Under the pieces are notes generated by a model that searched no databases, was not told where the DNA came from, and saw only the letters and a program-made list of their open reading frames with translations. Below, piece after piece: positions 1,595-58,768 of a stretch of DNA of 64,000 nt. The translations under genes were made by a program, and so were the position numbers. The DNA comes from Fibrobacteria bacterium. GTDB taxonomy: Bacteria; Fibrobacterota; Fibrobacteria; UBA11236. Numbering within the stretch: position 1 is the stretch's first letter; the number at the start of each line of letters is the position of its first letter. The stretch covers positions 1-64,000 of the forward strand of contig JAYTSD010000001.1 in the NCBI GenBank assembly GCA_043745805.1, in the 5' to 3' direction.

Positions 1595-4210
1595 ATGACA
1601 AGAATAAGAGTAACCGAAATTGAATTAGAAGCCGGCATATCCTTACCTTCTTCTGGTGGGCATTATACCATTGTGCTTAAAAGCGATAAGCCTTTAACCC
1701 GCGTGCGTATGGCGGGAATGTTTTTCGATACCAATAAATGTTTTTTATTACCGCAAGCGATGCATGGCATTAAAGAAATTGCGCAACAATACGATTTACA
1801 TCCTGATAGTAATATGTTGATTGTCGGTCATACGGATACTGCGGGTGAGGATGAATCGAATATGACTTTGTCGCTCGAGCGAGCAGAGTCGATGGCGGCT
1901 TTTTTGCAAGACAAAAGCGAAGTATGGGAAGCCTTTTTTCAAGACTCAAACCCCGAAGCAAAGCGTTGGGGTACACATGAAATTCAACTTATGCTTTCGG
2001 CTTTACCTGAAAACGAAGAGCATAAATTTTTAAGTAGCAAGGACATTAGTGGCAAATTTGACGATAAGACAAAAATAGCTGTTAAAGCTTTTCAACATGC
2101 CCACACTATTGCAGACAATGGTGAAGTCGATTCCAAAACTCGCAAAACTTTAATTCAAGCCTATATGGGACTTGATGGAACTTCTTTACCGCATAGTAAT
2201 GATAATGCTATTAAAATTACTACTCATGGTTGCGGGGAAAATTTCCCGAAAGTTAAAACCGGAGATGGCGTGGATAAGGCGGAAAATCGTCGCGTGGAAA
2301 TTTTCTTTTTTGACGGAGAGATTAGGCCTGCACCGGAAGCGAATAAAAAATCGCTCAAGGGATCGAAACCGTATTTGTTCTGGAATGATCAAGTAACAGA
2401 AAATGTGGATTTGGTAGTGGAAAAAGAAATCGTTCAACCCAAAGCTGACATTCCTCCTGAAATCTGGACGGCGTCTAGTTTTGCACGCCAAACTTCTGGT
2501 AATAAGGTGGAGGCCTTGGTTGATGGTGCCGAGGCTATGAAAGCAATTCACACGGCTTTGCTCGGAGCGAAGAACTCTATTCGCATAGCCGATTGGACTA
2601 TGGCAACTCAAGCTCCTTGGAACGAAATCCTCGACAAAGATCCTAACAAAATCCCTGACCTCTCTTTGGTCCGCGATGGTTCGGGTGGCCTTATTACTGG
2701 CCTTTTCGCGACTTTATTGCAATGCGCAAATGCCGGTGTGATCATCAAAATCTTACTTTGGAATCCGAAACATTTCGATTCTGCAGGTAATCATGGGGAG
2801 TCTATACAGAAAAAACTAGAAGGTCTCCATGCGAATATTAAGGTGTCTTTACATGATCCTGGAAGTTACTGGTCTCATCATCAAAAATTTGTGATTGTCG
2901 ATGGCAAGGTGGCTTTTCTTGGCGGAGTTGATTTAGCAGCAGGCCGATGGGACACTCCTGACCATTCCGTGGTCGCGGATAAAAGATGGAGTAGCACGGA
3001 ATTTTATAACCCCTGTTTGGAAAGCACGGGCAATGCTTCGAATAGTCCTCGTATGCCTTGGCATGATGTGCATCTCCGCATCGAAGGCCCCTCAGTGGCG
3101 GATGTAGATGCAATTTTTGCAGGCCGCTGGAACTTTCAAAATAAATATGATACGGTCACTTCCATAGCACCTGCTAAACCGATTCCTGACGCCACCGATT
3201 GGGTACAAATTCATCGCTCGGCAAACTCTGCCTCATGTGGGTTGCCGAAAACCGAACATTCCATTTTAGATATGTATTTGAATTTGATTAAATTATCTCA
3301 GCATCATATTCATATCGAAAATCAATTTTTCACTTCGCATTTTGGAACTTCAACTGTCGAAAATACTATTGCAGATGCCTTGGTAAAACGAATCGGTTTA
3401 GCCATCAAAAATAGTGAGGACTTCCGAGTTACTATTGTGTTGCCTGCGCACCCCGAAGGCCCGCTGAGTTCTTGGGATACACAAGAGACTATGCATTGGC
3501 AATATCAGACATTGATTCGCTCGGGAGCAGGATCCTTCCTCGAGCGTATTCGAGCATTGATTGGCCCTACCGCGAACGCGGAAGATGTTAGAAAAGTAGT
3601 TTCGATTCATTGCTTGCGTAATTATGGTAACCTTGCTGGAAAAGGATGGATTACAGAACAAATTTATGTGCATATCAAATGCATGATAGTAGACGATTCC
3701 TGGGTGGTAATTGGCTCAGCAAATATTAATGATCGCAGTATGTTGGGTAATAGAGATTCTGAAATCGCTGGACTCATAGCGGACGAGAATGAGGTAGATT
3801 CTTTCATGAAAGAAAAGCCTTTTAAAGCACGTGCCTTTGCCAGAAAATTGCGTGTAAAGCTTTGGAAAGAGCATTTAAATATTGACGAATTGGATCTCAA
3901 AGATCCATTCACCGCACAATGGAACAAAATTTCCGGTGATAACACAATAATTTACGAGAGTGTATTTCCCAAAATTCCACGTAACAGTGCACACACGTTA
4001 CCTAATTTTAATGCTCTTAAGGAATTCGATTCCGCACAGGCCTCTAAATTATCCGGAATTAAAGGACATCTTTGTGACTTCCCCTTACAATTTTTGGACA
4101 AAGAAGATCTGGAAGCTAGCGATCCACGGCACCCTGATAAAATGTACACTCTCATACTTCGGCCAAAAGGACGGTTTGGCGAAGTTCCTGTAGCAGAAGA
4201 ATCCGTATGA
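1595..4210 (+). CDS. OmpA-like/peptidoglycan-binding domain fused to phospholipase D (eukaryotic PLD/PldA-like)
   Basis: OmpA motifs IVGHTD..G...N..LS..RA and G.GE..P...NRRVEI split by a PGBD-like insert; two HKD motifs HHQKFVIVD and HIKCMIVD plus PRMPWHD, HIENQFF, GSANINDRS. Confidence 0.85.
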   Translation: MTRIRVTEIELEAGISLPSSGGHYTIVLKSDKPLTRVRMAGMFFDTNKCFLLPQAMHGIKEIAQQYDLHPDSNMLIVGHTDTAGEDESNMTLSLERAESMAAFLQDKSEVWEAFFQDSNPEAKRWGTHEIQLMLSALPENEEHKFLSSKDISGKFDDKTKIAVKAFQHAHTIADNGEVDSKTRKTLIQAYMGLDGTSLPHSNDNAIKITTHGCGENFPKVKTGDGVDKAENRRVEIFFFDGEIRPAPEANKKSLKGSKPYLFWNDQVTENVDLVVEKEIVQPKADIPPEIWTASSFARQTSGNKVEALVDGAEAMKAIHTALLGAKNSIRIADWTMATQAPWNEILDKDPNKIPDLSLVRDGSGGLITGLFATLLQCANAGVIIKILLWNPKHFDSAGNHGESIQKKLEGLHANIKVSLHDPGSYWSHHQKFVIVDGKVAFLGGVDLAAGRWDTPDHSVVADKRWSSTEFYNPCLESTGNASNSPRMPWHDVHLRIEGPSVADVDAIFAGRWNFQNKYDTVTSIAPAKPIPDATDWVQIHRSANSASCGLPKTEHSILDMYLNLIKLSQHHIHIENQFFTSHFGTSTVENTIADALVKRIGLAIKNSEDFRVTIVLPAHPEGPLSSWDTQETMHWQYQTLIRSGAGSFLERIRALIGPTANAEDVRKVVSIHCLRNYGNLAGKGWITEQIYVHIKCMIVDDSWVVIGSANINDRSMLGNRDSEIAGLIADENEVDSFMKEKPFKARAFARKLRVKLWKEHLNIDELDLKDPFTAQWNKISGDNTIIYESVFPKIPRNSAHTLPNFNALKEFDSAQASKLSGIKGHLCDFPLQFLDKEDLEASDPRHPDKMYTLILRPKGRFGEVPVAEESV

Positions 4211-5379
4211 TCTATACCCTAATTTTTCTTGCGACATCTATATTTGCAGGTTCAATAAAGGCATCAAGCGATTCCTTGCCGGCAATATTCTCTTTATTAG
4301 ATTCAGAAGATGGAAGACAAAGTCAACAGGCATTGTCGAAATTGATAAAGCTATCCACGTCATCCAATTGGAAAATGGCTTTACCCTTTCTCACTTTTGG
4401 AACGGAAATGTCACGTCACACTGCATGCAAATTTATCCGTAACACCAAGAATCCAGAATACCTTTCAACTTTTCTAAAACGAATGGAGTCCGAAAAAAGT
4501 GAATGGGTGGGATGGTGTTTGGCGAATGGAATAGGCGAGGCTGCCACTACCGCCGATGTCCCAGCCATTGCGAAAACCTGGAGGAAAACAAAAAATAAAC
4601 AAAATCGTTTTCGACTCATGCAATCCTTCCCTTTAGACTCCACCAATTCAATTGCGGCAGATACCATCGCTTCTTTGCGAAAGACCTTAAAAGACACGAT
4701 GCTATGGGAAGCGCGGTTTGAAGAATCCCGATTACGAAAATATTCGCATACCCTTCAACCTGATTCAATCAATGCTTGGTGGAAAGCCTATTTTGCGTCT
4801 GATATCTATTCTGGGTTTGCGCAATTTATCGATCCAAAATCGGTATGGTTTATGCTAGGTGATACTACTGTGAACATTGCTTCGCGAATCGAATTGCTTG
4901 AGGTTGCAGAAGACTTAACATTCCAGGACACTATACCCTGTGAGACTTGGTTATCCACATTCTCAAAATGGACCGATCTATTAACCCATGCACATAGCTT
5001 GCATCTTTACATTTCCAAATGTAATGAAACACAAAGAGTCATCATACGCAAATTGCTTGTGGATACAAGCGGAAAATATTTGATTAAGGGCGCATCGGAA
5101 ATGGATTTGGGAACATTATGGGACACCGAGAATGCAAATCTCATGTATCGTTATGTCCTTAATCGAGCCGCAACAGAAACATCAGACAGAGAAGCCCTTT
5201 CTGAAGCGTGTCAGACCATGGATGCCTATCTCGAAACAGCCAAGCCGAGCTTGGATTGGTTGCGGGCAAAACAGAAGGAGCATCGACCATACGATGGAAT
5301 TAATTATTCCATGGAAAAGGCAATTTGCCATCGCCCTAATTCCAAAATTAATGACAATGCTTTATGTGGAGAACATTGA
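4207..5379 (+). CDS. Secreted helical (HEAT-like) protein, candidate PLD immunity protein
   Basis: Signal peptide MIYTLIFLATSIFAG; ATGA overlap with the PLD stop; helical repeat character. Function inferred from context. Confidence 0.5.
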   Translation: MIYTLIFLATSIFAGSIKASSDSLPAIFSLLDSEDGRQSQQALSKLIKLSTSSNWKMALPFLTFGTEMSRHTACKFIRNTKNPEYLSTFLKRMESEKSEWVGWCLANGIGEAATTADVPAIAKTWRKTKNKQNRFRLMQSFPLDSTNSIAADTIASLRKTLKDTMLWEARFEESRLRKYSHTLQPDSINAWWKAYFASDIYSGFAQFIDPKSVWFMLGDTTVNIASRIELLEVAEDLTFQDTIPCETWLSTFSKWTDLLTHAHSLHLYISKCNETQRVIIRKLLVDTSGKYLIKGASEMDLGTLWDTENANLMYRYVLNRAATETSDREALSEACQTMDAYLETAKPSLDWLRAKQKEHRPYDGINYSMEKAICHRPNSKINDNALCGEH

Positions 5380-5380: not shown

Positions 5381-5581
5381 GGTCATTTCCACAGGCTCAG
5401 TGACCGAAGCGCGACAGTCCAGACCGAAGTGCGATAGGGTTGTGACTAAATAACGACGCACTCAGTGAGCGAATTTATACGGACGTTGAGCTTGTCGAAA
5501 CGCCCCAGTTACGGTCACTTCGACAAGCTCAGTGACCGAAGTGAAAGCTCAGTGGCCGCAGAGGGGCATGCTCAGTGACCG
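5381..5581. repeat. REP/REPIN-like cluster (TTCGACAAGCTCAGTGACCG family)
   Basis: Five CTCAGTG(A/G)(C/G)CG copies plus inverted pair TGAGCTTGTCGAA / TTCGACAAGCTCA between convergent genes. Confidence 0.75.
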
Positions 5582-5587
5582 ATTGTA

Positions 5588-6835
5588 TCAGTGTAGGTGA
5601 ACCTCAATACGTGCGGGTATGTTTTTTAGTGCACCGAGCAAATTATTTTGTAATTCCATTACCATTGCTGAAATATTTGCGAGATTATTTTCGGCCTTTT
5701 CTAATTGCCCCAGCAAATCAACAGGATCCTTCGCCACGCTAGCTAACCCATTATCCAATAATTTTCGCGCCAAATTTTCTTGATGGTAAAAAGAGGGACC
5801 AAAGAAAATCCTATTTCCTGCGCATAAAGGTTCCCACAAATTATGACAGCCTTTACCATTCCAGCTTCCGCCGACAAAGGAAACAGAAAATGTGGGACAC
5901 ATTTTCTCGACTTCGCCGATTTTATCAACAATTAAAAATTCAGCATCAGAATTTTGGTTAAAGGTTAAAAAACCAAACGGTTTTAATAAAGCAATGAATT
6001 CGGGAAACTCTTTTTCATAGCGCGGGAAAAAAGTTAGAGAATGCTTTTTCATAAACAAGGGAAGTGTGGGTAACAATAAACGTAACTCTGCTAAATGCAA
6101 AGAAATAAAGGCCAGCTTAGGAAGTTCGCCACCTTCAGTTTTATTGTTGTGAATCTGAGCTTTAAAATCTCGCTTCTCTGTAAGATTCAATAATCCATAA
6201 TGCAAAGCTTTAAAGTCAAAACCTATATCGACTTGTGTATCAGATAAATTACGATAACGAAATTGATCTTCTTGGTTTTGGGTTTGAATCCACTGTATTT
6301 GATTTAATAGTATTCGCGCACTTTTGGGAAAGCAGCGAAAAAGTTTTTCTGCACGCGGAGACATTCGCGCCGAAACCATCCAAACAGAAACTTTATTTTT
6401 GCTACAAGCTTGAATTGTATTGGGCCAAATTTCATTTTCATAAAGCACAAATAAAGTAATGTGGTTTTTACGGATAAAGTTTTCTACAAGTGGATAATGA
6501 TCAAAAGGAGTAATAGACGAATTATTTGGAAAATGATTTTTTAAATAACGCAGTCCAATATCGGTTTGTGCGGTGAGCAAAATGCTTTCCGATTTTAAGT
6601 TTGAATTCAAGGCATGAATAAGTCCTACTAAACCTTTGCATTCCCCCAATGATGCCGCGTGAAACCAAATCTTGGGCGAGGGGTTTTCTTTTAAATTTAA
6701 GTGCAGTCGTTCGCGAATATGCCATGAGGAAGACGGGCGTTTTTTATTTATAGCGAAAAGCGTTCCCCATTGCGTTAAGACTTTTGTAAAAGGGTAGGCG
6801 ATAGTCCATAGCAAACGATAAATCAAAAAAACCAT
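5588..6835 (-). CDS. waaA: 3-deoxy-D-manno-octulosonic acid (Kdo) transferase
   Basis: IWFHAASLGE, ENEIWPN, D.IGE, FVGGSW..GCHNLWEP motifs. Confidence 0.9.
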   Translation of the reverse strand: MVFLIYRLLWTIAYPFTKVLTQWGTLFAINKKRPSSSWHIRERLHLNLKENPSPKIWFHAASLGECKGLVGLIHALNSNLKSESILLTAQTDIGLRYLKNHFPNNSSITPFDHYPLVENFIRKNHITLFVLYENEIWPNTIQACSKNKVSVWMVSARMSPRAEKLFRCFPKSARILLNQIQWIQTQNQEDQFRYRNLSDTQVDIGFDFKALHYGLLNLTEKRDFKAQIHNNKTEGGELPKLAFISLHLAELRLLLPTLPLFMKKHSLTFFPRYEKEFPEFIALLKPFGFLTFNQNSDAEFLIVDKIGEVEKMCPTFSVSFVGGSWNGKGCHNLWEPLCAGNRIFFGPSFYHQENLARKLLDNGLASVAKDPVDLLGQLEKAENNLANISAMVMELQNNLLGALKNIPARIEVHLH

Positions 6836-7417
6836 TTAAGCGGAAATCCAAAATAAAAAAACGAGGGTAAAATTTTTCAAAATATTTCCTCCCTGAGATT
6901 TAAATGCTTGGCGAAAAGGATATGGACTTTTCCAACTTTCACTAAAGGCATTTCGCATGGGCGAAAACCCCAACCAACGCGGCACATTTTTTTTATACAT
7001 CAAATAAATTTCTCCAAAATAGTTTTCTAAAAAATCCTCTTCCATTTTAATAAGAAAAATATGATGGAGTAACATCCATGTTATCAACAACAAACTGATA
7101 AACCAAGGCGTACAATGCACAAAACCGATTAAACCGAGGGCATTTAAAATATTCGCTAAATAAAGCGGATTGCGACTAAAGCTATAAGGTCCTTTTTGAC
7201 ATAAACCTTGTTCGGAAAGCGCGTAATTGTTCGTATGCGCTTCAATATAAAAACCACAAAATAATCTTAAACTGGCGGCTACAATAATAAGCAATAACCA
7301 TAAGGGTTGCAGGCTTGTGTGTACGTGAATGCGAAAAGCCAATAAAATTAAAGCGGGTAAAATTAATCCCCAACCTCGCCAATTAAAATAGCAAGCACTT
7401 AGGTCCGCTTTATTCAT
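6836..7417 (-). CDS. ICMT/PEMT-family membrane methyltransferase, possibly LmtA-like lipid A methyltransferase
   Basis: GPYSFSRNPLY and EEDFL..FGE.Y..YKK.VPRW motifs; lies between msbA-like and waaA. Confidence 0.75.
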   Translation of the reverse strand: MNKADLSACYFNWRGWGLILPALILLAFRIHVHTSLQPLWLLLIIVAASLRLFCGFYIEAHTNNYALSEQGLCQKGPYSFSRNPLYLANILNALGLIGFVHCTPWFISLLLITWMLLHHIFLIKMEEDFLENYFGEIYLMYKKNVPRWLGFSPMRNAFSESWKSPYPFRQAFKSQGGNILKNFTLVFLFWISA

Positions 7418-9153
7418 ACTGCAATAGCCGAAGGTGTAAAGTCTAAAACAATATCCGCCATGGCAATTAATTCGGGTTCATGGGAAACGAGTAATAGTCC
7501 TCGCTGTCCTAGCGAACTATTCTGCATTCTCCATATTTTAATTAGCGCGCGCATAATTTCCGCTCTTTCATTCCCAGGCAGCCAAACCGTAGGTTCATCT
7601 AATAATAGATAGCGCTTGGAAGAGCTAAAAGCGCGCGCTAAGCAAAGTCTTTGTCGCTCACCACCGGATAAAGCCATCGCACCAAGTTGTTGCATTTTCT
7701 CGATAAGCGACTCAATATTTAAAATCTCATTTAAAGCCTTAGGTAACATAGGTGTATCGTAACTTAAACGCTTCCATGCCTCCGGCCAAAACTCCGGGAC
7801 TTGCACGCGTTGTGGCAAGTAGGCAAGGGAAATTTGGTCTTGTTGCATGACTGATTGAGGATAGAGGATTTGACCGCCTTGCGGCATTTCCATACGCGCG
7901 ATTAATTTTAGTAGAGTGCTTTTTCCCGTGCCATTTGGTCCTTGTATAGCCGTGAAGGCTGCACCATCCCATTGTGCATCTAGTCTTGCAAACACGGGTT
8001 TATTTTCGGATCCCATTTCCCAACCATACGAAAATCGTAATTGGGATATTTCAAAACGTTTTTCTTTGGATAAAGTGGGCGTAGGAATTTCAATTAAGTT
8101 TTCTAGGGTAAGTTTTAATTGTTCAATTTCTTTCCAAGCTTTTTCACCTTGCCAATAAATTGGGAATTGTCGCGTAGCTTCGCGTAAAGGGCGATGCAAA
8201 AAAAACAATAAAATCAAAAAGGGGAAAAAATTATTAGCATTATCTTTTCCCAACCAACTTCCCTGCAAGGCAAGTAAAGCAAAGCTTGCGAGTAAAGCAA
8301 AAAAGAACCATTCCATCAGTGGAGGAAAAGCAGCTTGCAAGCGTCCCCATTTTCTTTCTTGTTGGGCAGTAGCGGCTAAAGTTTTTTCTAAGGCCTGACT
8401 TTGCGAAGACCACTCTCCATTACCCAAAATATTTTCCAAGCTATCGCTAAAACCGTTTAAAGCGGCATGCAGTTTTTGCTCAGCTTTGTTCCAAGCCATT
8501 CCGGCGGTATTAAACCAATGTAAACGACCGCGTATCACCAAAAATACCGGTAACACAAAGGCTACTACTAGCGCAGCTAGTTTCCAGGAGAAGAAAAACA
8601 ATAAGGGCAAAAAAATGAGCAATTGCAAAGCGGCACTGGCACCATGAAAAAAGGCAGTGAGACCATGCGAGACCTTAACCCAATTTTCTTTTAAGGTTTT
8701 AATCAAGGCTTCAGCATAAGGGGCGCGATATAAAGGAGCTAGGCGGGATTTCAGTTGTGCGAAAAAGTCTTCTCTAAAAATATCACCAAAGGATTTTAAT
8801 AAGCGCAATTCGGTTTCTATTTGGGCGAATTGTAAAAGCGTTCGCAAAGTAACCAGTCCCAATAATAAAAGTGGGAGACTCAATGAAAAGGAGGGAATTA
8901 AGGTAACATTAAAGTTACTAAGCAAATTACTTGTGGAATTGTTTGCTGAACTATTTACCGAGTGATTGATCAAAACAGTTTTACTGCCTGGCATTCCAAT
9001 TACATTTTTAAGCAGCAATACAAAAATGGCTTCGATCAAACCAGCTCCGGCTCCGAGCATTAGTGGCCACAATAATTTCCAACGATGTTGGCGCATAAAA
9101 GAAAAGATCATGAACAAAAAGGTATTAAGGAAAATGATGCATACTCTTCTCAT
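7414..9153 (-). CDS. ABC exporter, fused permease/ATPase (MsbA-like)
   Basis: N-terminal TM helices; GPNGTGKST, LSGGERQR, LLLDEP, VSHE; start uncertain. Confidence 0.8.
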   Translation of the reverse strand: MRRVCIIFLNTFLFMIFSFMRQHRWKLLWPLMLGAGAGLIEAIFVLLLKNVIGMPGSKTVLINHSVNSSANNSTSNLLSNFNVTLIPSFSLSLPLLLLGLVTLRTLLQFAQIETELRLLKSFGDIFREDFFAQLKSRLAPLYRAPYAEALIKTLKENWVKVSHGLTAFFHGASAALQLLIFLPLLFFFSWKLAALVVAFVLPVFLVIRGRLHWFNTAGMAWNKAEQKLHAALNGFSDSLENILGNGEWSSQSQALEKTLAATAQQERKWGRLQAAFPPLMEWFFFALLASFALLALQGSWLGKDNANNFFPFLILLFFLHRPLREATRQFPIYWQGEKAWKEIEQLKLTLENLIEIPTPTLSKEKRFEISQLRFSYGWEMGSENKPVFARLDAQWDGAAFTAIQGPNGTGKSTLLKLIARMEMPQGGQILYPQSVMQQDQISLAYLPQRVQVPEFWPEAWKRLSYDTPMLPKALNEILNIESLIEKMQQLGAMALSGGERQRLCLARAFSSSKRYLLLDEPTVWLPGNERAEIMRALIKIWRMQNSSLGQRGLLLVSHEPELIAMADIVLDFTPSAIAV

Positions 9154-37715: not shown

Positions 37716-38573
37716 TTAAAACCGTTTAGAAATAATTAATGCGGCCCCATTAATACCGTCGCGTCCATAAATCGGATTTAATTTTAATGCGGCTAATTTT
37801 TGAGAATTATTTTTTGAAAAAAGGTGTGAAGTTAATTCATAAAACCCCGCATTTGCTAAAGGAAGAATTATTGAAGCAATAGTAAGTTCGAGTTGAAGGT
37901 TACTCATAATTTCGCTGGGTGTCGCATCTGGAGAGCTGGATGCACTTGCAGAAAATGGTGCTGAGGCCACAATTCCACCATAATAGGTTGCAGACAATGA
38001 ACCTTTACCTCCCATCAAGTTTCCTACACTATAAACTGCAAGGGGAGATACAATAAATTCAGCTCCTAGACCCAACATGCCTGCGCCAAAACAGTCTCCG
38101 CCACCACAAGTAGCTGAATATGTTCCCCATGCGGCAAGCCCTCCAACGATGTCTCCCGCCAAAGATTCAAGGAAAAATCGCGTTACCGAAAATGAAGAAC
38201 GATTATCTGCTTTGGATTTTTGAATCGGATTAGTCGGTGTAACAGCGGAAACGGAAGAATTAATATTTTGTTTGGGTTCAATCTGCTGAGATTGAGTAGG
38301 CCGTTTCTTTTGATTTGCTTCCACTAAAGGTTGTGCTAATACCTCTTCGGATATAATCTTTTCCACCAAATCCATTTTATAAACGAAAGTATTTCCATCA
38401 CTGGTTTGGATTTTTAAACTTTGGCCTAATTCTTCTTCTAAGATATTGCATTTGATAATACTTCCATTCTTTAAATAAACAATCTGCTTGCCTTCTGTTT
38501 GAGTTAAAAGAAAAAGTAAGCCTAAGAGGAAGGCAAAATTTATTTTATGGTACGCTAGCATGCTAAACATCAA
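37716..38573 (-). CDS. Secreted protein: conserved VYLKNGSII N-domain plus Gly-rich hydrophobic C-domain
   Basis: Signal peptide; N-domain paralogous to 38623..39576. Confidence 0.6.
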   Translation of the reverse strand: MMFSMLAYHKINFAFLLGLLFLLTQTEGKQIVYLKNGSIIKCNILEEELGQSLKIQTSDGNTFVYKMDLVEKIISEEVLAQPLVEANQKKRPTQSQQIEPKQNINSSVSAVTPTNPIQKSKADNRSSFSVTRFFLESLAGDIVGGLAAWGTYSATCGGGDCFGAGMLGLGAEFIVSPLAVYSVGNLMGGKGSLSATYYGGIVASAPFSASASSSPDATPSEIMSNLQLELTIASIILPLANAGFYELTSHLFSKNNSQKLAALKLNPIYGRDGINGAALIISKRF

Positions 38574-38622
38574 TGACTCCGATACGGATTAAGTTATAAG
38601 TGAGTATTCGGTTTATTTTATT

Positions 38623-39576
38623 TTAAAATCCGACCCCGGTTTGAATCGCAAATCTAGGAGAAACAAATTCAATAGAAAAGGACTGTGATTCCGTGGAGGT
38701 CTTTATTGAATTTTTAATATTAATACGAGAAACACTATAGCTTCCCTCAAGACTCAGTTTAATGGACTTCCTTGGGATAGAAAAAATCAATCCACCGCCC
38801 GTACCCCAAAAAAAACCTCCCGCTGAAGTTATAGTTTGCCCTACTTCAGTAGCATTTACTCCAGTATTAGGTCCCGGAAAAAAAAGGTCATAACCTAAAT
38901 TAATTAAGAGAAATGGAAAAAATCCACGTAATAATTCTGTGGATAGTCTTGCTGAACCAAAAAGGGGTAAGATGTTGCCTAAATCATCTAGATCGTCAGA
39001 ATCTGGATGCTCAAATTTTATTGTTGTGAAATAACTTGCACCCAAACCTAATGCTAAATGGGAGATAACAGGCGCCTCCACAGACGCCTGAATGGAAAAA
39101 TTTTTATCTAGGTTAGCTTTGCCCTTATAATTCCTAAGGGTATCACCACAGGTTGAGCAAGTATAATCGACATAAGTACCATTTACTGTGCTCGTCATTG
39201 CAGCAGGAAAGTTGTACCCCGCTTTGATATAATAGGTAAAAAGCCGCTTTGAATTTTTGGGTGCCTCTTCGGTCGCTGGCGTTGCTACCAAAGTAGTAGT
39301 ATTACTAATAGGTGGGTTAATTTGAATTGGAGCTAATACTGGTTGTTCTTCTTCAAATAATATTTTTTTCACCATGTCCATTTTATAGACAAAAAGACTT
39401 CCATCACTGCTTTGGATTTTCAAACTTTGATTTGGAATTTGTTCAAGTATCACACCTTTAATGATGCTTCCGTCTTTTAAGTAAACGACCTCCTTACTTT
39501 CTGCGGAATTCATAAGGAAAAATAACCCCAAAAGGAAACATATTTTTTTAGGGTTAAATATTATGTTTGACATCAT
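38623..39576 (-). CDS. Secreted protein: conserved VYLKDGSII N-domain plus outer-membrane beta-barrel
   Basis: Signal peptide; amphipathic strands ending GVGF. Confidence 0.65.
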   Translation of the reverse strand: MMSNIIFNPKKICFLLGLFFLMNSAESKEVVYLKDGSIIKGVILEQIPNQSLKIQSSDGSLFVYKMDMVKKILFEEEQPVLAPIQINPPISNTTTLVATPATEEAPKNSKRLFTYYIKAGYNFPAAMTSTVNGTYVDYTCSTCGDTLRNYKGKANLDKNFSIQASVEAPVISHLALGLGASYFTTIKFEHPDSDDLDDLGNILPLFGSARLSTELLRGFFPFLLINLGYDLFFPGPNTGVNATEVGQTITSAGGFFWGTGGGLIFSIPRKSIKLSLEGSYSVSRINIKNSIKTSTESQSFSIEFVSPRFAIQTGVGF

Positions 39577-39661
39577 TGACTCCGATTGGGATTAAGTTAA
39601 AAGTTAATTAATTGATATTATTAAATACACTATTTGGTTATTGTAAGGAAACTCGGTTATG

Positions 39662-40011
39662 TTAGATGCAAAAACCATCATAGGTAATTGTAGGCGTGTC
39701 TAAACCTTGGATACATCTATTAAGTGGACTCTTAGTAATGGGATTTTTCTTTCCCATGCAATCCGAATCCTTGTAACAGCTAAATCCACACGTATAACGG
39801 CCCGCTCCTAAATGCAGGGCTTCAGTACCGCAAAAACATTTATTTGTTATTGGCGCCCGGCATATCCGACATCAGTGCATGTTGGTGCCGTAGCAATTGG
39901 TTTAGTTGGAGTTTTTGTGGTGGCTTCTTCAACAGGTCCACTGGATTCACAACTTATACTTAATAGCATATAAGCAAGTATAAGTGTCCTAGCTATTTGA
40001 ATACTAAGCAT
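39662..40011 (-). pseudogene. Frameshifted Cys-rich lipoprotein (absent from ORF track)
   Basis: RBS plus MLSIQIARTLILAYMLLSISC lipobox ORF stops at 39847; a Cys-rich continuation (NKCFCG...TCGFSCYKDSDC...RCIQG) runs in another frame. Confidence 0.55.
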
Positions 40012-40074
40012 TTAATTTCCTATTTTTTAAATGGATTAATTGAAAGATAGTGGTATTCGTGGGTAACCTTTTTT

Positions 40075-41367
40075 CTACTTACCACAGGGGAGTATGGATT
40101 TTGTGAATGTGAAACCGATACCAACATTCACACTGACAATGTCTGACTTTAAGATATTACCGTCTAGCCACCATTGCCCAAAAAGAGGTGTTGGGCGATT
40201 GTTAATAGTTGTACTGCATTGGAAGTTAAAGCAGGTATAACTATTTGATGACGTTATGTATCGGATAAAACCATCGGAATCCAGTTCATAAATTGTTGTA
40301 TAATCAGAATGACTACCCGACTCAGCATCAATATTTTCGACCTTCTTATAATTACCTGCCACATTGCACTCAGCTGTAGTCATGGTTTTAGAGTAGGGAC
40401 AGTTTAAGATGTGGCTGCCCCACGAGTAATATCTGTCAAATGTAGAGCGTGTAAAGACACGACAACTTGCCCCGAATGCGATCTTGAGATTAAAAGATTG
40501 TGCGATTCCAGAAGTCGGGATCAGCTTTAGTGATTCACCATGAACCTCCCAAGTGCCTTTGACAGACCAGTTTTTGTACCTCATCTCTTCATAGGTATAT
40601 AACGGTGGGCCATTAAATAAAATCCCTGTTTCATCATTTGCATTCTTAAAATTATTTACTGTACTGTAATCACTTGTATATTGTTTTGAGACTAGCCAAG
40701 ATGGATGAGTAACAACCACAGGCAATGCCATAAGGACTATGTCACCCAAATTTTGATTTAAATCAGAAGTAATACCAACTTTTTTGGTAATGAATCCAAG
40801 TTTTGAGAAAGTTAATGAGTCAGCGTAAATAACAGTACTCTTTTTTAAGTCTTTAAATAAATCGGTAGAAAGAATATCACGATCTTGATCTATTTCAGGT
40901 TTAGAAACTGCAAGCCTATGAATCATAGATTGTGATCCCCAAATTATTTTTACAAAATAAATTCCTTGAGCATTTTTTTTCATTAAACTTGGAATGGAGA
41001 GAGAGTATTGCCCGAGTTCCATGTTTCGATTGAAAATTGTTTCCAGTTTGACGCCACTGATAGTATAAAGATCAATGCGAAGTGATTCCTTTGAAAATGC
41101 TTTAAATTGCAGGGTGTTTCCATATATTTTTATTTCAGAATGCTTTTCAGGGTTGTTTTTTAGGAAGCTTGGAACCGTTATAAAAGAAAAAGTACCCAAT
41201 ATTGAGGTAGTAGTAGAAACATTTTGGGATTGAACCTTAACTGTTACTCCTGCAATTGGACTTAATAGGGTATCGACTAAACGCCCCGATAATTCACCGC
41301 TATCGGACATGGCGACTCCAATTGTTATTAGTATAAAGTGCGCAATAAATTTTAATTTGACTGGCAT
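40075..41367 (-). CDS. Secreted protein: carboxypeptidase-regulatory-like domain with CTD-like insert and lipocalin-like C-terminal domains
   Basis: Signal peptide; LSGRLVD...PIAGVTV; LYTISG.KL...GIYFV; AAGGGG RBS favours ATG 41367. Confidence 0.55.
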   Translation of the reverse strand: MPVKLKFIAHFILITIGVAMSDSGELSGRLVDTLLSPIAGVTVKVQSQNVSTTTSILGTFSFITVPSFLKNNPEKHSEIKIYGNTLQFKAFSKESLRIDLYTISGVKLETIFNRNMELGQYSLSIPSLMKKNAQGIYFVKIIWGSQSMIHRLAVSKPEIDQDRDILSTDLFKDLKKSTVIYADSLTFSKLGFITKKVGITSDLNQNLGDIVLMALPVVVTHPSWLVSKQYTSDYSTVNNFKNANDETGILFNGPPLYTYEEMRYKNWSVKGTWEVHGESLKLIPTSGIAQSFNLKIAFGASCRVFTRSTFDRYYSWGSHILNCPYSKTMTTAECNVAGNYKKVENIDAESGSHSDYTTIYELDSDGFIRYITSSNSYTCFNFQCSTTINNRPTPLFGQWWLDGNILKSDIVSVNVGIGFTFTKSILPCGK

Positions 41368-41436
41368 AATTAGTTTTCCCCTTGTACTCGTCAATCAAAA
41401 AAAATGACCGAGTTAAGAAAAAAACAATTTTTGCAA

Positions 41437-41485
41437 ATCTTGTAAACTGACATTTCGCTGACAAGCATTTTAGGGGAAGCAAAAG
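41437..41485 (-). promoter_or_regulatory. 49-bp upstream element, copy 1 (TGTCA-N6-TGTCA direct repeat)
   Basis: 48/49 identical to 45684-45732. Confidence 0.8.
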
Positions 41486-41497
41486 GAGAGGGAAGTA

Positions 41498-41775
41498 CTA
41501 ACGTTTTATAAACCTCATCGATTTATGAAAATCATCAGCTTTAAAATCCATTATATATGACCCTTTAGATAGCCCGTCCGACCGTAAAGAGTAATACCCT
41601 ACATCGCGCATTTCATCAATTAAGGTTCTAGCGAGTTTTCCGCGTATGTCAATTAACTTAGCGGTTACATACATTCTTTTGGCTAAACCAAATTGCAATA
41701 TGCCATCGCCATTTTTCCCCATAGTTTGCAGAAAAAATTCCTTGGGTAAAAGTGTGTGCGTATTTGCAAATGAAT
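41498..41775 (-). pseudogene. Orphan C-terminal sorting-domain-like remnant
   Basis: IDIRGKLARTL...GLSKGSYIM pattern typical of secreted-protein CTDs; frame runs upstream into the DUF349 copy with no signal peptide. Confidence 0.55.
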
Positions 41776-41917
41776 TGGAAATGTATTGGACCAGTGCTTC
41801 AAGCGCAAAATGAATTTGTGTGGAAACGTTTCCGTACCGCCTGTGATACGGTATTAGGTGCGGTATTTCAAGAAGAGAATTGTTTAACTTAAGTTAAAAA
41901 TCAAGTTTTATAGTTAG
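41764..41917 (+). repeat. DUF349 3'-end repeat, copy 2
   Basis: Encodes NWKCIGPVLQAQNEFVWKRFRTACDTVLGAVFQEENCLT* with the stop exactly 4250 bp after the gene's stop; left terminator arm partly retained. Confidence 0.95.
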
Positions 41918-41983
41918 TGTCGTGGAGTTCAATTAATTGTATTAAAGGGATGGTCCCCAAGATTGCGAATTCTACTTCTTTCA

Positions 41984-43189
41984 TCACGGATCCAAACCTA
42001 GGTCAACGTACTTGAAACCGTATTTTGGATCAGTCAAGTAAATCAAGGTGTCGAAGGACCAATAGCTTCCGGTGGTGATATTTTTGAAATAGACATTTGC
42101 ATTAGAGTAAGCGTGATACATTCCAAAATTGTACTGGACCGAATCGGCGGGAAGGCTCCAAGCCAGGGTTTGTTGGTCGGTAAGTCCGGAATCGAGAACG
42201 ATTTTATTCACGGGGGTGGCGGAACGATTTCGAGCCAGTAAAATAAAATAGCTTGAGTTGCTGATCAAGGTCGAGGAATACGTCGCCGGTTGCCCAAGCA
42301 CAATGGTGTCCTTCCAAGTGACAATATTTCCCGAGGCGGCGGCAGCGAAGATGAGGCGGGTTGGACGACTCTTCAGATCCAGCATAAAGCTATCTGCAGG
42401 GGAAATGGAGGGTACATAGGTGTTACTCCCCGCATAAACGGTGGTGGTGAGATAGGCACCGGTATGGTTAATGAGTTTGAAATGAAAACCTAGGTCATCT
42501 TCATCCAAAGTCTCTTCGCGTATGCCAGAAAGGATTAGCTGAGCCAATATCGAGTCGAGCTGATTGTGGACTTCGATTTTGAGATTCACTATTGCATGGG
42601 AATCCCCGTTATAATTATCCGTATGTGCGTCCAAAGCGGAATTACCTGCTATCCGAAACAGAGGAGCGCTGCCCCCGTCCAGCCATTGGGTTCGCCCCTG
42701 GACTTGGTAGAAATATTTCAAGGACACGGAGTCTTGGTCCAAATTCGTGTTCACATCTGTTCTCACATCGAATTTACCGTTGTACATGTCGCCGTCATGG
42801 TCCACTGTGTTGAGGATTTGAGCCGTCAATGTATACGTGGCGGGAATCTTGTTCTTTTGAATGTTAGTGGTGGCGCTTCCATTGTAATTCAGCACGATAT
42901 CATACACCAAGATATTTCCTTTGTATCCTTTGATCGAAAACGTGGTCGGACCTCCCGCATAACCTGGCGCAGCCAGATTCACCAGTTGTTGCAATGATTT
43001 CAGAGAGTCGTCAAACCAGGTTGTAGGATTACCTTGCGCGTCCAAATGTTGGATTTGTACTCGGTGCATAGAAAGCAAAACGGTGTCGACATTTAAGTTA
43101 ACGCGATTGGATTTGCTGTCGTTGATATTACATGCGCACAGAAGCCAAAATGCTAACCAAACCAAAAGGGACAGAAACATTTTTTTCAC
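41984..43189 (-). CDS. Surface lipoprotein, beta-rich
   Basis: GTG start overlapping the upstream stop with GGAG RBS; LLCAC lipobox. Confidence 0.6.
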   Translation of the reverse strand: MKKMFLSLLVWLAFWLLCACNINDSKSNRVNLNVDTVLLSMHRVQIQHLDAQGNPTTWFDDSLKSLQQLVNLAAPGYAGGPTTFSIKGYKGNILVYDIVLNYNGSATTNIQKNKIPATYTLTAQILNTVDHDGDMYNGKFDVRTDVNTNLDQDSVSLKYFYQVQGRTQWLDGGSAPLFRIAGNSALDAHTDNYNGDSHAIVNLKIEVHNQLDSILAQLILSGIREETLDEDDLGFHFKLINHTGAYLTTTVYAGSNTYVPSISPADSFMLDLKSRPTRLIFAAAASGNIVTWKDTIVLGQPATYSSTLISNSSYFILLARNRSATPVNKIVLDSGLTDQQTLAWSLPADSVQYNFGMYHAYSNANVYFKNITTGSYWSFDTLIYLTDPKYGFKYVDLGLDP

Positions 43190-43899
43190 GGGGTCACTCC
43201 CACTGTGGAACGTGCGTCGATGGTATAAATCTGCGAAGATGATTTTGGCTGCATCAAGAAATAGGTGGCAATGCCTGTACCGATTACCGCAGTGCCGACT
43301 GCGGTCCAAACGAGAATCTTGGTTGTGGATAGGTAGGGTGACTGGGCGATTTCTGCGGGCGGAATTTTAGCGGTGGAAGTCTGTACTGTGCTTGGGCGAA
43401 CGCCGTTGCGCGCATAGTATTCCTCTTTGACCTTGTCGAAAAGTCGATCTATCTCGTCGCTCACGTACATGTCGATGAGCTTTATGGCCGGCTCTAGATC
43501 CAACAGCCGGTACATGTAATACTTGCCTTTTTCCCGCGTCCCCGGAGCGGCCGAATACACGACAGCCAAATGCTTTGCGATGAATACGCTGTCCGCGTGT
43601 TGGTAAACCGGGTTGGCCTTGGTGAAGGCTTCAATGGCACTGATAACGCTTTCGAACTCACCATTGTTATAGGTATTGTGGATGCCTTTTTGATCAAGCG
43701 CACCGCTTGCGGGTTGAGCCCACACCGAGATACCCAATCCAATCAAAACCAGTAAGAATACGGAGAACAGGTTTTTTGAATCTTTCCGTCCACTTCCTTT
43801 CATTTCGTTGCATCGGACCTTGTTCACAGGTGTTGTCGATTTTTCTAATTGATTCATAATGGGATTTTTCTTCCACTTAGGTATTTCCACCATCATCAT
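43186..43899 (-). CDS. Secreted TPR-like protein with C-terminal TM helix
   Basis: YNNGEF...DSVFIAKHLAVVY...YRLLDLEP, similar pattern to 23215..23934; start uncertain. Confidence 0.6.
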   Translation of the reverse strand: MMMVEIPKWKKNPIMNQLEKSTTPVNKVRCNEMKGSGRKDSKNLFSVFLLVLIGLGISVWAQPASGALDQKGIHNTYNNGEFESVISAIEAFTKANPVYQHADSVFIAKHLAVVYSAAPGTREKGKYYMYRLLDLEPAIKLIDMYVSDEIDRLFDKVKEEYYARNGVRPSTVQTSTAKIPPAEIAQSPYLSTTKILVWTAVGTAVIGTGIATYFLMQPKSSSQIYTIDARSTVGVTP

Positions 43900-43955
43900 T
43901 TCTCCTTTTTCCTATATCGGAAAAGTGGAAGTCTCGGCTCAACTCTTGGATTTAT

Positions 43956-44717
43956 TTATTTAACTATCAAATATCCAGTACTGCTTTTGTCATCAACGAC
44001 AATACTGTCCTGACCATTTCCAGAAAATGTTCCAGCTCGGATTTCTTTTTTTAATGGGATCACAGAAATTGTCATGTGGACCCGACTTTTAAGAACAAAT
44101 TTATGGCCTATCGGAGGAGAAATTGCAAACCAGATGCTTGGTATTACTGCACCCAAAATTGAAAATACAGGGACATCCATTGACATAGCATCTATTACTC
44201 CTCCGCTACATATTGTCACAGCTGCAAAGATTAATTGCGTTGTTAGTTTTGAATTTTGCCAATACTTTTCTTTAGAATAATCTATTCCGCCCCAGTCTAC
44301 TGATACAAGCAGCCTTAGGTCTGGTGAAATGGTTGCATTGTTGTTATGTAGATTTTCAGATCGGGGAAATTGTTCGTCTAGGATAAGTTCACGAGAGACT
44401 GGGGACATTTCCACAAGTACGCCTTCTTCAGCTGCCTTCGCTTCTACTGCCCCAGCGATATAATCGAGTAAATCTTTATTGGAATGCGGGAAAACCCCAT
44501 TTATTTCTATCCTCGCTTTTTTCCCAGCGTAGTTACGAAATTCAATTTTTTTACATGTTTCGGAAATGGCTTGCCTCGCCGCGTTTGAAATAAGCTCCTG
44601 TTGTATCGGGAGTCTTGGTGAAATAATTTCCATTGAGGTAGGCATGAGCTGCTTGTTTGTTGCGCATGCAGAAAACATGATAAGTGTGATCGATAAAATG
44701 ATGAATAAATTTTTCAT
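43956..44717 (-). CDS. Hypothetical lipoprotein with hydrophobic hairpin
   Basis: FSAC lipobox. Confidence 0.6.
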   Translation of the reverse strand: MKNLFIILSITLIMFSACATNKQLMPTSMEIISPRLPIQQELISNAARQAISETCKKIEFRNYAGKKARIEINGVFPHSNKDLLDYIAGAVEAKAAEEGVLVEMSPVSRELILDEQFPRSENLHNNNATISPDLRLLVSVDWGGIDYSKEKYWQNSKLTTQLIFAAVTICSGGVIDAMSMDVPVFSILGAVIPSIWFAISPPIGHKFVLKSRVHMTISVIPLKKEIRAGTFSGNGQDSIVVDDKSSTGYLIVK

Positions 44718-44731
44718 TTGTATCCTATTTA

Positions 44732-45277
44732 TTAATTGTTATCGGACAAAAGACAAATTTCATTTTTGAGGAAAAGACGCCGCCTGCCATTCAAAAAATA
44801 ATTTGATTTTTTGAACATAATTTGAGAAAATCTATTTTCGACTGGGAGCGGTTTAATTGAAGTCACCAAACTCAATTGTTGAATTTCATTCGGCGTCGGT
44901 TTGAAGTTCCATGCACATAACCCAGTCCTTACGCCATTTGTGACCGAGGTGTTCCGTTGAGCGAATAAGATTAGGGTGTCGTCTTTAAAAAAATGGACAT
45001 CGCATGCACTCTCTTCTATCAACCCACCAGCTGTACCTGCATTTAAAATTGCAAGGCTTTTTACACCTAACGGCGTTTTGCTGAAATCCCTAATTATTTT
45101 GAATTCCGTTTGATCCCAATCTGTCCCCCTATGGAGGTCACCTACCACTCCATATACTGTGACATCGAATAGGTCGCGTCTTTCGAGCAAAGTAATTCCA
45201 TAATTTGTGCATTGGCAAGCCCCAGCGAGTTTAACAGCAAGGTACGTTGTTAAAGAAATCACAAAAATTAATTTCAT
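44732..45277 (-). CDS. Secreted TIMP/NTR-like protein
   Basis: Signal peptide ending AGA then CQC; later SAC..F and GLC. Confidence 0.5.
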   Translation of the reverse strand: MKLIFVISLTTYLAVKLAGACQCTNYGITLLERRDLFDVTVYGVVGDLHRGTDWDQTEFKIIRDFSKTPLGVKSLAILNAGTAGGLIEESACDVHFFKDDTLILFAQRNTSVTNGVRTGLCAWNFKPTPNEIQQLSLVTSIKPLPVENRFSQIMFKKSNYFLNGRRRLFLKNEICLLSDNN

Positions 45278-45348
45278 ATTTTTCCCTTTGATGGTGATTA
45301 AATTACTGATTAAAAATTTAAAGTATTTTCAGTTTTTGTTTAACAAAA

Positions 45349-45570
45349 TTAAAGACCGCATGGCGATAAAGATTTTTTAAAACTAAAGCCGCTTCCAATG
45401 TTTATAGAAACTACATCCGAGGTTAAAACACTCCCACTGAGCCACCATCCTCCGTATACAGGGACACTTTCGCCACTTAGGGCTTTGCACGATATTCCAT
45501 AACAAGTGTTTTGAGCTATGGAAATTTGTAAAGCAATCAAAATAATCGCAGAAGCCAATGCTGTTCTCAT
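45349..45570 (-). pseudogene. Internally deleted paralog of 40075..41367 (signal peptide fused to last ~50 aa)
   Basis: GGWWLSGSVLTSDVVSINIGSGFSFKKSLSPCG aligns with GQWWLDGNILKSDIVSVNVGIGFTFTKSILPCG. Confidence 0.7.
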
Positions 45571-45683
45571 AAATACTCTCCTGATACACAACAAGATTCG
45601 TCGCCAAAAAGAATGGCAAAAAGCGATTCTTTAGCGAACCCAATGATTCCAATATGTGTTTATGAAAGAAGCAATTCTTTTAC

Positions 45684-45732
45684 ATCTTGTAAGCTGACAT
45701 TTCGCTGACAAGCATTTTAGGGGAAGCAAAAG
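45684..45732 (-). promoter_or_regulatory. 49-bp upstream element, copy 2
   Basis: 48/49 identical to 41437-41485. Confidence 0.8.
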
Positions 45733-45820
45733 TCGGAAGAAGATCGTGTCGAAAGTCGAGCAATACCTTTCACAATCATTCGTTACAACAAGCACTTTGC
45801 GATTAATTCCCTTTTAAAAT

Positions 45821-45859
45821 GGTATTAGGTCGTTTCGAAAATGAAAATAGTTTGACTTC
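45821..45859 (+). repeat. DUF349 3'-end repeat, degenerate copy 3
   Basis: GGTATTAGGT then TTTCGAAAATGAAAATAGTTTGACTT; reads VLGRFENENSLT versus VLGAVFQEENCLT in copy 2. Confidence 0.5.
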
Positions 45860-49989: not shown

Positions 49990-49992
49990 GGC

Positions 49993-53522: not shown

Positions 53523-53820
53523 GTAATTCATCCATGCTTTCAATATCCAAACGATGTTCTTGTTTATAAAGCGAAACTACAATACCTAAGGCCACAGCCA
53601 TTTCGCTGGAAGATACCGCAATGATAAAAGCTGAAAAAATTGATCCGGCAGCCGCATCACCCGCGTGAAAATGCGCAAAGGCAATGAAATTAATTAATGC
53701 AGCGTTGAGCAATAGTTCAATGGACATGAGCATGCCAATAATATGTCTTCTCGTGAAGAGACCATAAAGGCCCAAACAAAACAGTGCTGCCGATAAAATT
53801 AAGCAATGGCCTAAACTCAT
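53515..53820 (-). CDS. nuoK: NADH-quinone oxidoreductase subunit K
   Basis: SIELLLNA, E.AVALG. Confidence 0.92.
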   Translation of the reverse strand: MSLGHCLILSAALFCLGLYGLFTRRHIIGMLMSIELLLNAALINFIAFAHFHAGDAAAGSIFSAFIIAVSSSEMAVALGIVVSLYKQEHRLDIESMDELHG

Positions 53821-57116: not shown

Positions 57117-57166
57117 TTAAATAGTCTCATTCATACAGCTAATTAATATGCCTACTCGTATCCTCA

Positions 57167-58390: not shown

Positions 58391-58767
58391 TCAAGCACCT
58401 TTTTTCTCCAAGCGAATAGTAATCCAAAACTCAGTATAAAAATAAAAATTGCTAGCTCCACCCATATTTGGCCGAGGGATAGGGAAGGAATATGTCCAAG
58501 TTTAATTTCGCGAAAAAGTTTTACCGTGGGGAAGAGGAATAACGCTTCGACATCGAATACCATAAATAGTAATGCGAATAAATAATAGCCGACTTTAAAT
58601 TGAATACGTGCTGTGCCAAAAACCTTTTCTCCACTTTCATAAGCTTCGAATTTGTCTTTCGCATTCGGAAATTTTGGAGCTAAGATTGCCGAGGCAATGA
58701 GCGCTCCACCCACGAATAGTGGGCCGAGTATGGCGAAAATGGCTATAAGTGCATAATGTGTTTCCAA
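58381..58767 (-). CDS. nuoA: NADH-quinone oxidoreductase subunit A
   Basis: YESG, FDVE..FLFP; TTG start with GGGGAGG RBS lying in the queD 3' end. Confidence 0.92.
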
Positions 58768-58768
58768 T

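Follow-up and report, generated by a model that had tools for sequence, protein, structure and literature searches.

A phospholipase D with a split OmpA-like head and an overlapping exported partner: a candidate toxin-immunity pair in Fibrobacteria

Organization of the gene pair

The window analysed here, positions 1 to 64,000 of contig JAYTSD010000001.1 of a Fibrobacteria bacterium (GenBank assembly GCA_043745805.1), contains two overlapping genes that encode a phospholipase D (PLD) with an OmpA-like head and a candidate immunity protein. The first gene (1595..4210, + strand) specifies an 871-residue head-PLD protein, P0001, and the second (4207..5379, + strand) a 390-residue protein, P0002, which begins with an export segment (residues 1-19; nucleotides (nt) 4207-4263). 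An earlier note, made from the letters alone, had proposed these genes as a toxin and its immunity protein and had reported that they overlap by ATGA, a feature read in the DNA at 4207-4210. Its description of P0001 as a protein without a signal peptide is borne out by the open reading frame (ORF) translation and the Pfam matches: the N-terminus is not hydrophobic, the best 11-residue Kyte-Doolittle window within residues 1-40 scoring 0.71, and no recognised N-terminal trafficking domain was returned by Pfam and NCBIfam scans of the protein.

The head of P0001 is a split OmpA-like domain

The head module (residues 1-280; 1595..2434, + strand) was modelled confidently with AlphaFold2 (predicted local distance difference test, pLDDT, 87; predicted template modelling score, pTM, 0.85) and consists of short N-terminal strands, a split OmpA-like domain with an insert, and a C-terminal strand and helix. 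The first part of the OmpA-like fold (residues 41-108; 1715..1918, + strand) contains the motif GHTD...LSLERA, with D81 and R96, and is recognised by Pfam OmpA (PF00691; residues 43-108 against profile positions 1-67 of 98; E 1.2e-9; 38.9 bits against a cut-off of 27.2) as well as by OmpA-like matches in the PDB. A helical insert of about 100 residues follows (residues ~105-205; 1907..2209, + strand), within which Pfam PG_binding_1 (PF01471) matches residues 146-186 (nt 2030-2152) with profile positions 18-57 of 57, at E 2.7e-7 and with 31.1 bits where 23 are required. The second part of the fold (residues 206-240, TTHGCGENFP...NRRVEIFFF; 2210..2314, + strand) carries R232 and corresponds to the second stretch of the NCBIfam OmpA-type matches. 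In the model, the OmpA-like elements lie at residues 35-40, 55-68, 73-78 and 86-104, four helices occupy residues 108-194, and the last strands are formed by residues 208-212 and 233-239.

Foldseek searches with the head model gave 11 matches at E<=1e-3, and all those listed are OmpA-like domains, including 3td3, 5u1h, 6jfw, TagL (5m38) and Pal, along with Acinetobacter baumannii OmpA, OprF and PA0833. These alignments extend over about 205 columns against OmpA-like targets of about 120 residues, which indicates that the fold is split by the ~100-residue insert at residues ~105-205. Pfam, the structural model and Foldseek thus agree with the earlier reading of an OmpA-like domain, with the beta-alpha-beta-alpha-beta-beta fold of that family, interrupted by a peptidoglycan-binding-like insert. 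D81 is conserved in 291 of 301 head segments, and R96 and R232 in all 301. By analogy with the OmpA-like domain of A. baumannii, D81 and R96 are presumably the Asp/Arg pair by which the stem-peptide diaminopimelate is held. The peptidoglycan-binding motifs predicted in the head of P0001 are intact.

The phospholipase D region

The two-HKD catalytic region extends over residues ~297-840 (2483..4114, + strand) and is supported by Pfam and PDB matches, PLDc and PLDc_2 each matching in two stretches (PLDc at 57 bits, its cut-off being 21.9). The two HKD motifs are complete, the first being H429-x-K431-x4-D436 (nt 2879-2902) and the second H693-x-K695-x4-D700 (nt 3671-3694), and the signatures PRMPWHD (485-491), IENQFF (574-579) and GSANINDRS (707-715), already listed in the earlier note, are all present in the translation. 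In an alignment of 23 PLD relatives the HKD positions and those of the other motifs are invariant or nearly so.

The best matches among solved structures are those to human PLD1 and PLD2, with 6u8z (PLD1) at E 5e-68 over residues 355-840 and 6ohm at E 5.2e-68. Pseudomonas aeruginosa PldA (7v53, identified as the PldA structure in PMC9550806) matches the PLD part in four stretches at E 3.2e-43. Dictyostelid PLD1 is 35-36% identical to the PLD part, and no relative exceeding 44% identity was found among 5.8 billion proteins. In a careful tree, the PLD of P0001 is sister (support 95/93) to five metagenomic PLDs; the 10-member clade to which they belong (100/99) includes no named eukaryote, the dictyostelid and fungal sequences forming clades apart. 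Among these relatives, the nearest PLDs have LysM at the N-terminus in the place of the head (P0003, E 4.6e-5; P0004, E 2.3e-7), and P0005 shows a weak LysM match. For the PLD part, NCBIfam returned weak cardiolipin synthase matches below threshold (49 bits against a cut-off of 290).

The downstream protein P0002

P0002 starts with a hydrophobic segment at residues 5-15 (score 2.17) followed by IKA/SS. The signal peptide that the earlier note assigned to it therefore holds as far as a hydrophobic export segment is concerned; no basic residue precedes this segment, and the N-terminus may be a signal anchor instead of a cleaved signal peptide. Only two homologues, P0122 and P0123, at 44-45% identity, were recovered from the 5.8 billion proteins, and the full-length one likewise begins with a hydrophobic segment. 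Six cysteines are invariant across the three family members, as would suit an exported, disulfide-bonded protein.

No NCBIfam family, no PDB sequence match (with a single sequence or a profile) and no Foldseek match at E<=1e-3 was found for P0002. Hints of a HEAT-like repeat all fall short of recognition: Pfam HEAT_2 scores 17.8 bits, under its cut-off of 27.7; the Atlas HEAT clusters reach 0.92-0.93, under the usual recognition level; and the Foldseek matches to ARM/HEAT proteins have E>=2e-3 and template modelling (TM) scores of 0.2-0.36, on a model with a pLDDT of 67. By its position and predicted export, P0002 is probably an immunity protein, of a new family. The low identity of the PLD part to its relatives and the scarcity of P0002 homologues mark the pair as accessory.

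Distribution and architecture of the head family

Residues 1-280 alone were searched against 1.84 billion representative proteins, which gave 4347 representatives at E<=1e-3 and 519 at E<=1e-30, each standing for a cluster at 50% identity. The family occurs mostly in Myxococcota and Fibrobacterota. Among 204 proteins in which the placement of the module was scored, it is N-terminal with a tail exceeding 150 residues in 56, N-terminal and alone in 31, C-terminal in 35 and internal in 82; counted across these classes, 40 of the 204 contain it more than once. Pfam annotation of 55 proteins with an N-terminal head identified Het-C in 15, CarboxypepD_reg in nine, arginine deiminase in one and PLD in none, and many of the tails have no Pfam family. 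The 60 proteins with internal, C-terminal or tandem modules yielded one PAAR domain, one VgrG OB domain and one subtilase, to which precomputed Pfam annotation adds one further VgrG-OB/gp5 fusion and one PAAR-calpain fusion. P0001 is the sole head-PLD fusion among the 120 proteins listed.

The same contig, which is 225 kb long, encodes beyond the window a paralogue of exactly 871 residues, P0006. Its residues 1-277 are 69% identical to the head of P0001, and its 590-residue tail is unrelated to that of P0001. In a quick head tree P0001 and P0006 are sisters (Shimodaira-Hasegawa-like approximate likelihood ratio test, SH-aLRT, 100), nested among Het-C carriers. The occurrence of the same head with unrelated tails in these two proteins is the tail displacement typical of polymorphic toxins. 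For the tail of P0006 itself there was no Pfam family, no PDB match outside the head, and no Atlas score above 0.88, all the clusters being unnamed; it is rich in Gly/Ala/Ile stretches and could be membrane-active.

These comparisons support a polymorphic toxin family with a wall-binding module, as the earlier note had supposed, in that one module is joined to many unrelated tails. The search with the head alone gave no picture of a domain always fused to PLD in a housekeeping context; the tails are varied, that of the paralogue included. The composite OmpA/PGB1 module in an N-terminal position on toxins was not found described in a literature search, whose coverage excluded subscription journals.

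Related loci and their neighbours

To place the gene pair among its relatives, 76 loci were collected with a 9-sequence head alignment from one genome per species, the genome of the window not being among them. Genes were called by a simple in-house method and neighbours were scanned with Pfam only in part, so that for any family lacking a local seed the neighbour counts are minimum values. The loci (designated L with a number) derive mainly from metagenome-assembled genomes (MAGs) of Polyangiaceae and other Myxococcota, five coming from Fibrobacterota; several genomes have three or four loci and several loci two or three head genes.

Signal peptides are scarce on the module proteins. Of 77 complete module proteins, 5 have a hydrophobic N-terminus, and only one of the five resembles a signal peptide by eye; for the remaining proteins of these loci the figure is 147 of 661. 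Exported proteins are encoded downstream: in 6 of 12 N-terminal-head genes with a tail of at least 270 residues (L003, L004, L008, L015, L069, L074) the next gene on the same strand encodes an exported protein or lipoprotein, and in L005 a gene whose product has a signal or lipoprotein N-terminus is the second downstream of the head gene. DUF7738 comes after Het-C in L003, L004 and L005.

The clearest case is a locus of a Fibrobacterota MAG (L009:669-3445), where a 785-residue protein combines a partial OmpA-like head match with a C-terminal phage lysozyme and is followed by a 130-residue LprI lysozyme inhibitor with a signal peptide. By its domains, this is a clear pair of predicted cell-wall toxin and immunity protein. 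The toxin-immunity layout put forward in the earlier note for P0001 and P0002 thus finds support by comparison, exported proteins being often encoded after head-toxin genes and LprI after the lysozyme.

Two loci show the module on a separate polypeptide. In L008 a head-only gene overlaps a gene for a PT-TG pre-toxin protein. In L011 (9857-13771) a head-only gene of 445 residues is followed 17 nt later by a gene for a separate 699-residue two-HKD PLD, which is in turn overlapped by one for a 157-residue exported protein; this PLD belongs to another subfamily and is 24% identical to P0001 (E 5e-28).

Immediately before N-terminal-head genes, and often in overlap with them, lie partner genes encoding two CarboxypepD_reg-like beta-sandwich units; in Polyangiaceae these have in addition a conserved domain of about 110 residues, termed Nt, and the same parts are found N-terminally in proteins with internal heads. 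Fused to head genes or just upstream of them, the Nt domain occurs in 19 of the 76 loci and the beta-sandwich units in 45. Examples of the partner genes are L002:6803-7711, L005:4961-5878, L054:8952-9941, L032:8940-9932, L044:1-831, L010:4430-5419, L007:3202-4050, L038:8067-9923 and L074:8476-9774. The Nt/beta-sandwich unit may be an adaptor or export handle. In two of the Fibrobacterota loci (L001:3572-5194, L002:12265-13953) a conserved protein with FHA and SLT lytic transglycosylase domains is encoded convergently to the head genes, and may be the wall-opening part of an export device.

Proposed function of the pair

Taken together, P0001 and P0002 are likely to be a toxin-immunity pair. 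More specifically, and with a probability of roughly 0.6, they would be a Tle5-like antibacterial PLD effector that acts in the periplasm and carries a peptidoglycan-anchoring module, and its new, Cys-rich, all-helical immunity protein.

The steps that we infer, including toxicity, a periplasmic site of action, binding by P0002 and the route of delivery, would be as follows. P0001 would be made in the cytoplasm without a Sec signal and would leave the cell by a Sec-independent route, perhaps on or with a spike of a contractile injection system or type VI secretion system (T6SS). On arrival in the periplasm of a neighbouring Gram-negative cell, its OmpA-like/PGB1 module would bind peptidoglycan and keep the enzyme between both membranes, where the two-HKD PLD would cut membrane phospholipids to phosphatidic acid. 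P0002, exported to the periplasm of the producer, would act there as a Cys-rich, all-helical repeat protein that binds and blocks the PLD received from sister cells.

The head was regarded in the earlier note as a carrier or target-wall anchor. The anchor part of that claim fits the placement data better; the notion of a specifically N-terminal head does not stand, the module being found internally, C-terminally and in tandem too. A module that is free in position and often repeated suits an anchor better than a loading signal, and the same preference follows from the LysM domains on the nearest PLDs and the conserved Asp/Arg residues. The odds that the module is a wall anchor are put at about even, and its use as a loading handle is judged improbable.

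Several observations weigh against the proposed function. The pair is surrounded by housekeeping genes (kdtA, a PEMT-like methyltransferase gene, an ABC transporter gene, groES/EL and dnaK), and no mobile-element gene or tRNA was found in the 64-kb window. No member of the T6SS, extracellular contractile injection system (eCIS), VgrG, PAAR, Hcp or Rhs families was detected by Pfam in any ORF of the window, VgrG lies within 10 kb in only 3 of the 76 part-scanned related loci, and the Nt/beta-sandwich partner is absent from the six-frame ORFs of the window. Human PLD1/2 match the PLD better (E 5e-68) than PldA does (E 3e-43). As for P0002, its export segment lacks a basic n-region, its all-helical model is of only moderate confidence (pLDDT 67), and no sequence or fold relation was found to PA3488 (Tli5a), the known immunity protein of PldA.

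Delivery

Delivery is the weak point of the proposed function, and the link to a T6SS or eCIS that had been envisaged from the sequence of the pair is weak. The null result for these families in the window was the same at E<=0.05 in the 16 ORFs without a family, and the VgrG genes near head genes are confined to L006, where VgrG is accompanied by DUF6531/RHS, L056, and L066, where it is found with RHS, Imm49 and DUF7691. A T6SS in Fibrobacterota was not found described in the literature search, which did not extend to subscription journals. The four module proteins fused to VgrG or PAAR parts, together with the few neighbourhoods with VgrG and Rhs genes, make the spike of a contractile injection system a candidate carrier. 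On balance, delivery of P0001 by a T6SS-type or other contractile injection machine is possible but somewhat doubtful, and the Nt/beta-sandwich partner leaves room for an undescribed route.

An explanation of this kind, which keeps the toxin-immunity pair and dispenses with a contractile machine, is the best placed of the alternatives, though still improbable. Release would occur by lysis, in vesicles or through a module-specific route, and the Nt/beta-sandwich partner encoded elsewhere could be the export handle. It is favoured by the rarity of VgrG near head genes and the lack of a T6SS/eCIS gene in the window, by the frequency with which Nt domains and CarboxypepD_reg-like units are fused to, or just upstream of, head genes, and by the FHA-SLT lytic transglycosylase gene beside the head genes of two Fibrobacterota loci. 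Set against these points are the absence of that partner from the window, the four fusions to PAAR/VgrG parts, and the failure of the partial neighbour scans to identify a candidate machine.

A broader and more speculative view, to which only a low probability is attached, is that the proteins with the split OmpA-like/PGB1 module make up a large superfamily in Myxococcota and Fibrobacterota (at least 519 clusters), as yet undescribed, whose members target the envelope independently of Sec. The module or its Nt/beta-sandwich partner would then be the handle of a route other than the classical T6SS, and head-PLD with P0002 would be one cargo-immunity set with a new family of phospholipase immunity proteins.

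Other explanations

That P0001 is a housekeeping envelope enzyme, a PLD or transphosphatidylase tethered to the cell's own peptidoglycan that remodels lipids with P0002 as periplasmic regulator or partner, is unlikely. The neighbouring genes do concern the envelope and its lipids (kdtA, the PEMT-like gene and the ABC transporter gene), but they are convergent to the pair and therefore belong to a separate operon. In keeping with such a role, no secretion machine or mobile element was found in the window; the protein, however, has no signal peptide or membrane helix, so that Sec could not bring the OmpA/PGB module to the wall of its own cell. The weak NCBIfam matches to cardiolipin synthase, which could be taken in favour of a lipid-synthetic role, score far under their cut-offs (49 against 290 bits). 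Moreover, no orthologue above 44% identity was found among the 5.8 billion proteins, and unrelated tails follow the same head, in one case within this very genome.

Equally unlikely is an effector that targets eukaryotes such as protists or fungi, in the cross-kingdom style of PldA/PldB, with the head serving for export or surface display only and P0002 as a chaperone. A eukaryotic target is made possible by the closer similarity of the PLD to human PLD1/2 (6u8z) than to PldA, and dictyostelid PLD1 is also among its relatives; the PLD nonetheless sits in the 10-member clade without a named eukaryote, apart from the dictyostelid and fungal sequences. LysM, present on the nearest relatives, is listed as chitin-binding in eukaryotes as well in PMC6838775, yet the residues conserved in the head of P0001 are those for peptidoglycan binding. 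P0002 is exported and Cys-rich, as expected of periplasmic immunity and unlike a cytoplasmic chaperone, and the related head protein with lysozyme and LprI forms a purely antibacterial pair.

Least probable is that the OmpA-like module is itself a second toxin of the Tox-OmpA type, sequestering peptidoglycan precursors, rather than an anchor: a toxin role was proposed for the C-terminal OmpA domains of toxins delivered by Photorhabdus virulence cassettes (PVC) by Zhang et al. 2012 (PMC3482391), and many family members are little more than the module, some in tandem, but the module has plainly enzymatic toxins as fusion partners (PLD, Het-C, lysozyme), is replaced by LysM on the nearest PLDs, and is followed here by a single immunity-like gene.

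Comparison with known systems

The closest known counterpart of the candidate toxin-immunity pair is PldA (Tle5a) with Tli5a (PA3488), a pair of the P. aeruginosa H2-T6SS. Both enzymes have a two-HKD PLD of eukaryotic type (7v53, E 3.2e-43), and the gene of each is followed by one for an exported protein of comparable length (390 residues in P0002 against 376 in PA3488). In PMC9550806, PA3488 is described as a protein of 376 residues with a 19-residue signal peptide, beta strands and long helices. P0002, unlike PA3488, is all-helical in its pLDDT-67 model, with no match in sequence or fold. P0001 differs from PldA in having no vgrG or T6SS gene in the 64-kb window, in the OmpA/PGB1 module that makes up its N-terminal part, and in the greater proximity of its PLD to human PLD1/2.

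From the eukaryotic enzymes PLD1 and PLD2, which provide its top matches among solved structures and share the motifs PRMPWHD, IENQFF and GSANINDRS, P0001 is set apart by the lack of a PX/PH region, by its bacterial context with an overlapping downstream gene and by its separate clade in the tree.

The combination of peptidoglycan-binding module and toxin domain on one Sec-independent protein has a parallel in Acinetobacter: according to PMC6838775, C-terminal LysM and Het-C occur there on "evolved" VgrGs, and T6SS cargo bearing LysM is often encoded next to vgrG. Het-C is likewise the tail of 15 of the 55 N-terminal-head proteins; in the present family, however, a split OmpA-like fold with a PGB1 insert replaces LysM, and fusion to the spike is unusual (four seen). 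In their survey, Zhang, Aravind and co-workers (2012; PMC3482391) reported OmpA, PGB1 and LysM on toxin polypeptides, regarding PGB1 and LysM as adhesion parts and OmpA, always at the extreme C-terminus, as a toxin. The pair resembles the polymorphic toxins of that survey in its conserved region, its swapped C-terminal toxin domains and its downstream candidate immunity gene. It departs from them in the composite module N-terminal to the toxin and in lacking both a known trafficking domain and orphan toxin cassettes.

The OmpA-like anchors (the C-terminal domain of OmpA, Pal, OprF, TagL, and TssL in its long form) share the fold of the head, with target-normalised TM-scores of 0.6-0.8, and its Asp/Arg pair. 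They are, in contrast, brought to the envelope by a signal peptide, a lipobox or membrane helices, none of which P0001 has, and its fold holds the additional PGB1 insert of about 100 residues.

If the proposed function is correct, PLD toxins of the Tle5/PldA type reach beyond Proteobacteria into Fibrobacterota, and the composite peptidoglycan-binding module is an exchangeable targeting part that occurs with PLD, Het-C, lysozyme, arginine deiminase and many tails of no known kind. It would then be a practical probe for finding new families of toxins and immunity proteins in genomes of Myxococcota and Fibrobacterota. P0002 would be an immunity protein of a new fold class against a eukaryote-type PLD, which could reveal a new mode of PLD blocking. 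The several hundred module proteins without signal peptides raise the question of how they leave the cell.

Genomic surroundings

Judged by its ORF and Pfam content, the window is an ordinary stretch of chromosome. Its DnaK shares 83-86% identity with DnaK from Fibrobacterota MAGs, and of the eleven matches that bear an organism name ten are Fibrobacter-type. Upstream of the PLD gene is an ORF open at its 5' end (2-1516, + strand), which encodes an Ig-like domain (Big_13) and, C-terminally, a region rich in Gly/Asn, probably a beta-helix. It was considered as a part of the toxin system and rejected; nothing ties the two, and no similar gene recurs beside head genes. Downstream of P0002, no orphan toxin or immunity cassette was found, only a repeat-rich spacer of 208 nt followed by kdtA (5588-6835), the PEMT-like methyltransferase gene (6836-7417) and the ABC transporter gene (7414-9153), all identified by Pfam and convergent to the pair. 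Farther downstream are groES/EL, hrcA-grpE-dnaK-dnaJ, regulators and an 11-subunit nuo operon.

The spacer between P0002 and kdtA (repeats at 5389-5582) contains five copies of a GCTCAGTGACCGA-like 13-mer, which are all the copies of the window; 0.53 copies would be expected by chance in the whole window, and none of 100 shuffles reached five. A 20-nt inverted repeat in the same spacer (5480-5499 and 5519-5538) may be a two-way terminator.

Eight ORFs of 181-462 residues without a Pfam family at E<=1e-4 are arranged in series at 37716-47246 (- strand). One of the window's ORFs (40075-41394) shows weak matches to CarboxypepD_reg and to Por_Secre_tail, a sorting domain of the type IX secretion system (T9SS), both under cut-off, and the G+C content is 0.47 at 42-44 kb, against about 0.40 in the rest of the window. 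In the nuo operon (48562-58824, - strand) one ORF (57167-58390) fuses the domains of the 20-kDa NuoB-type and 30-kDa NuoC-type subunits, and genes of the NuoE/F/G types are absent, as in the 11-subunit kind of complex I without the NADH-oxidising module.

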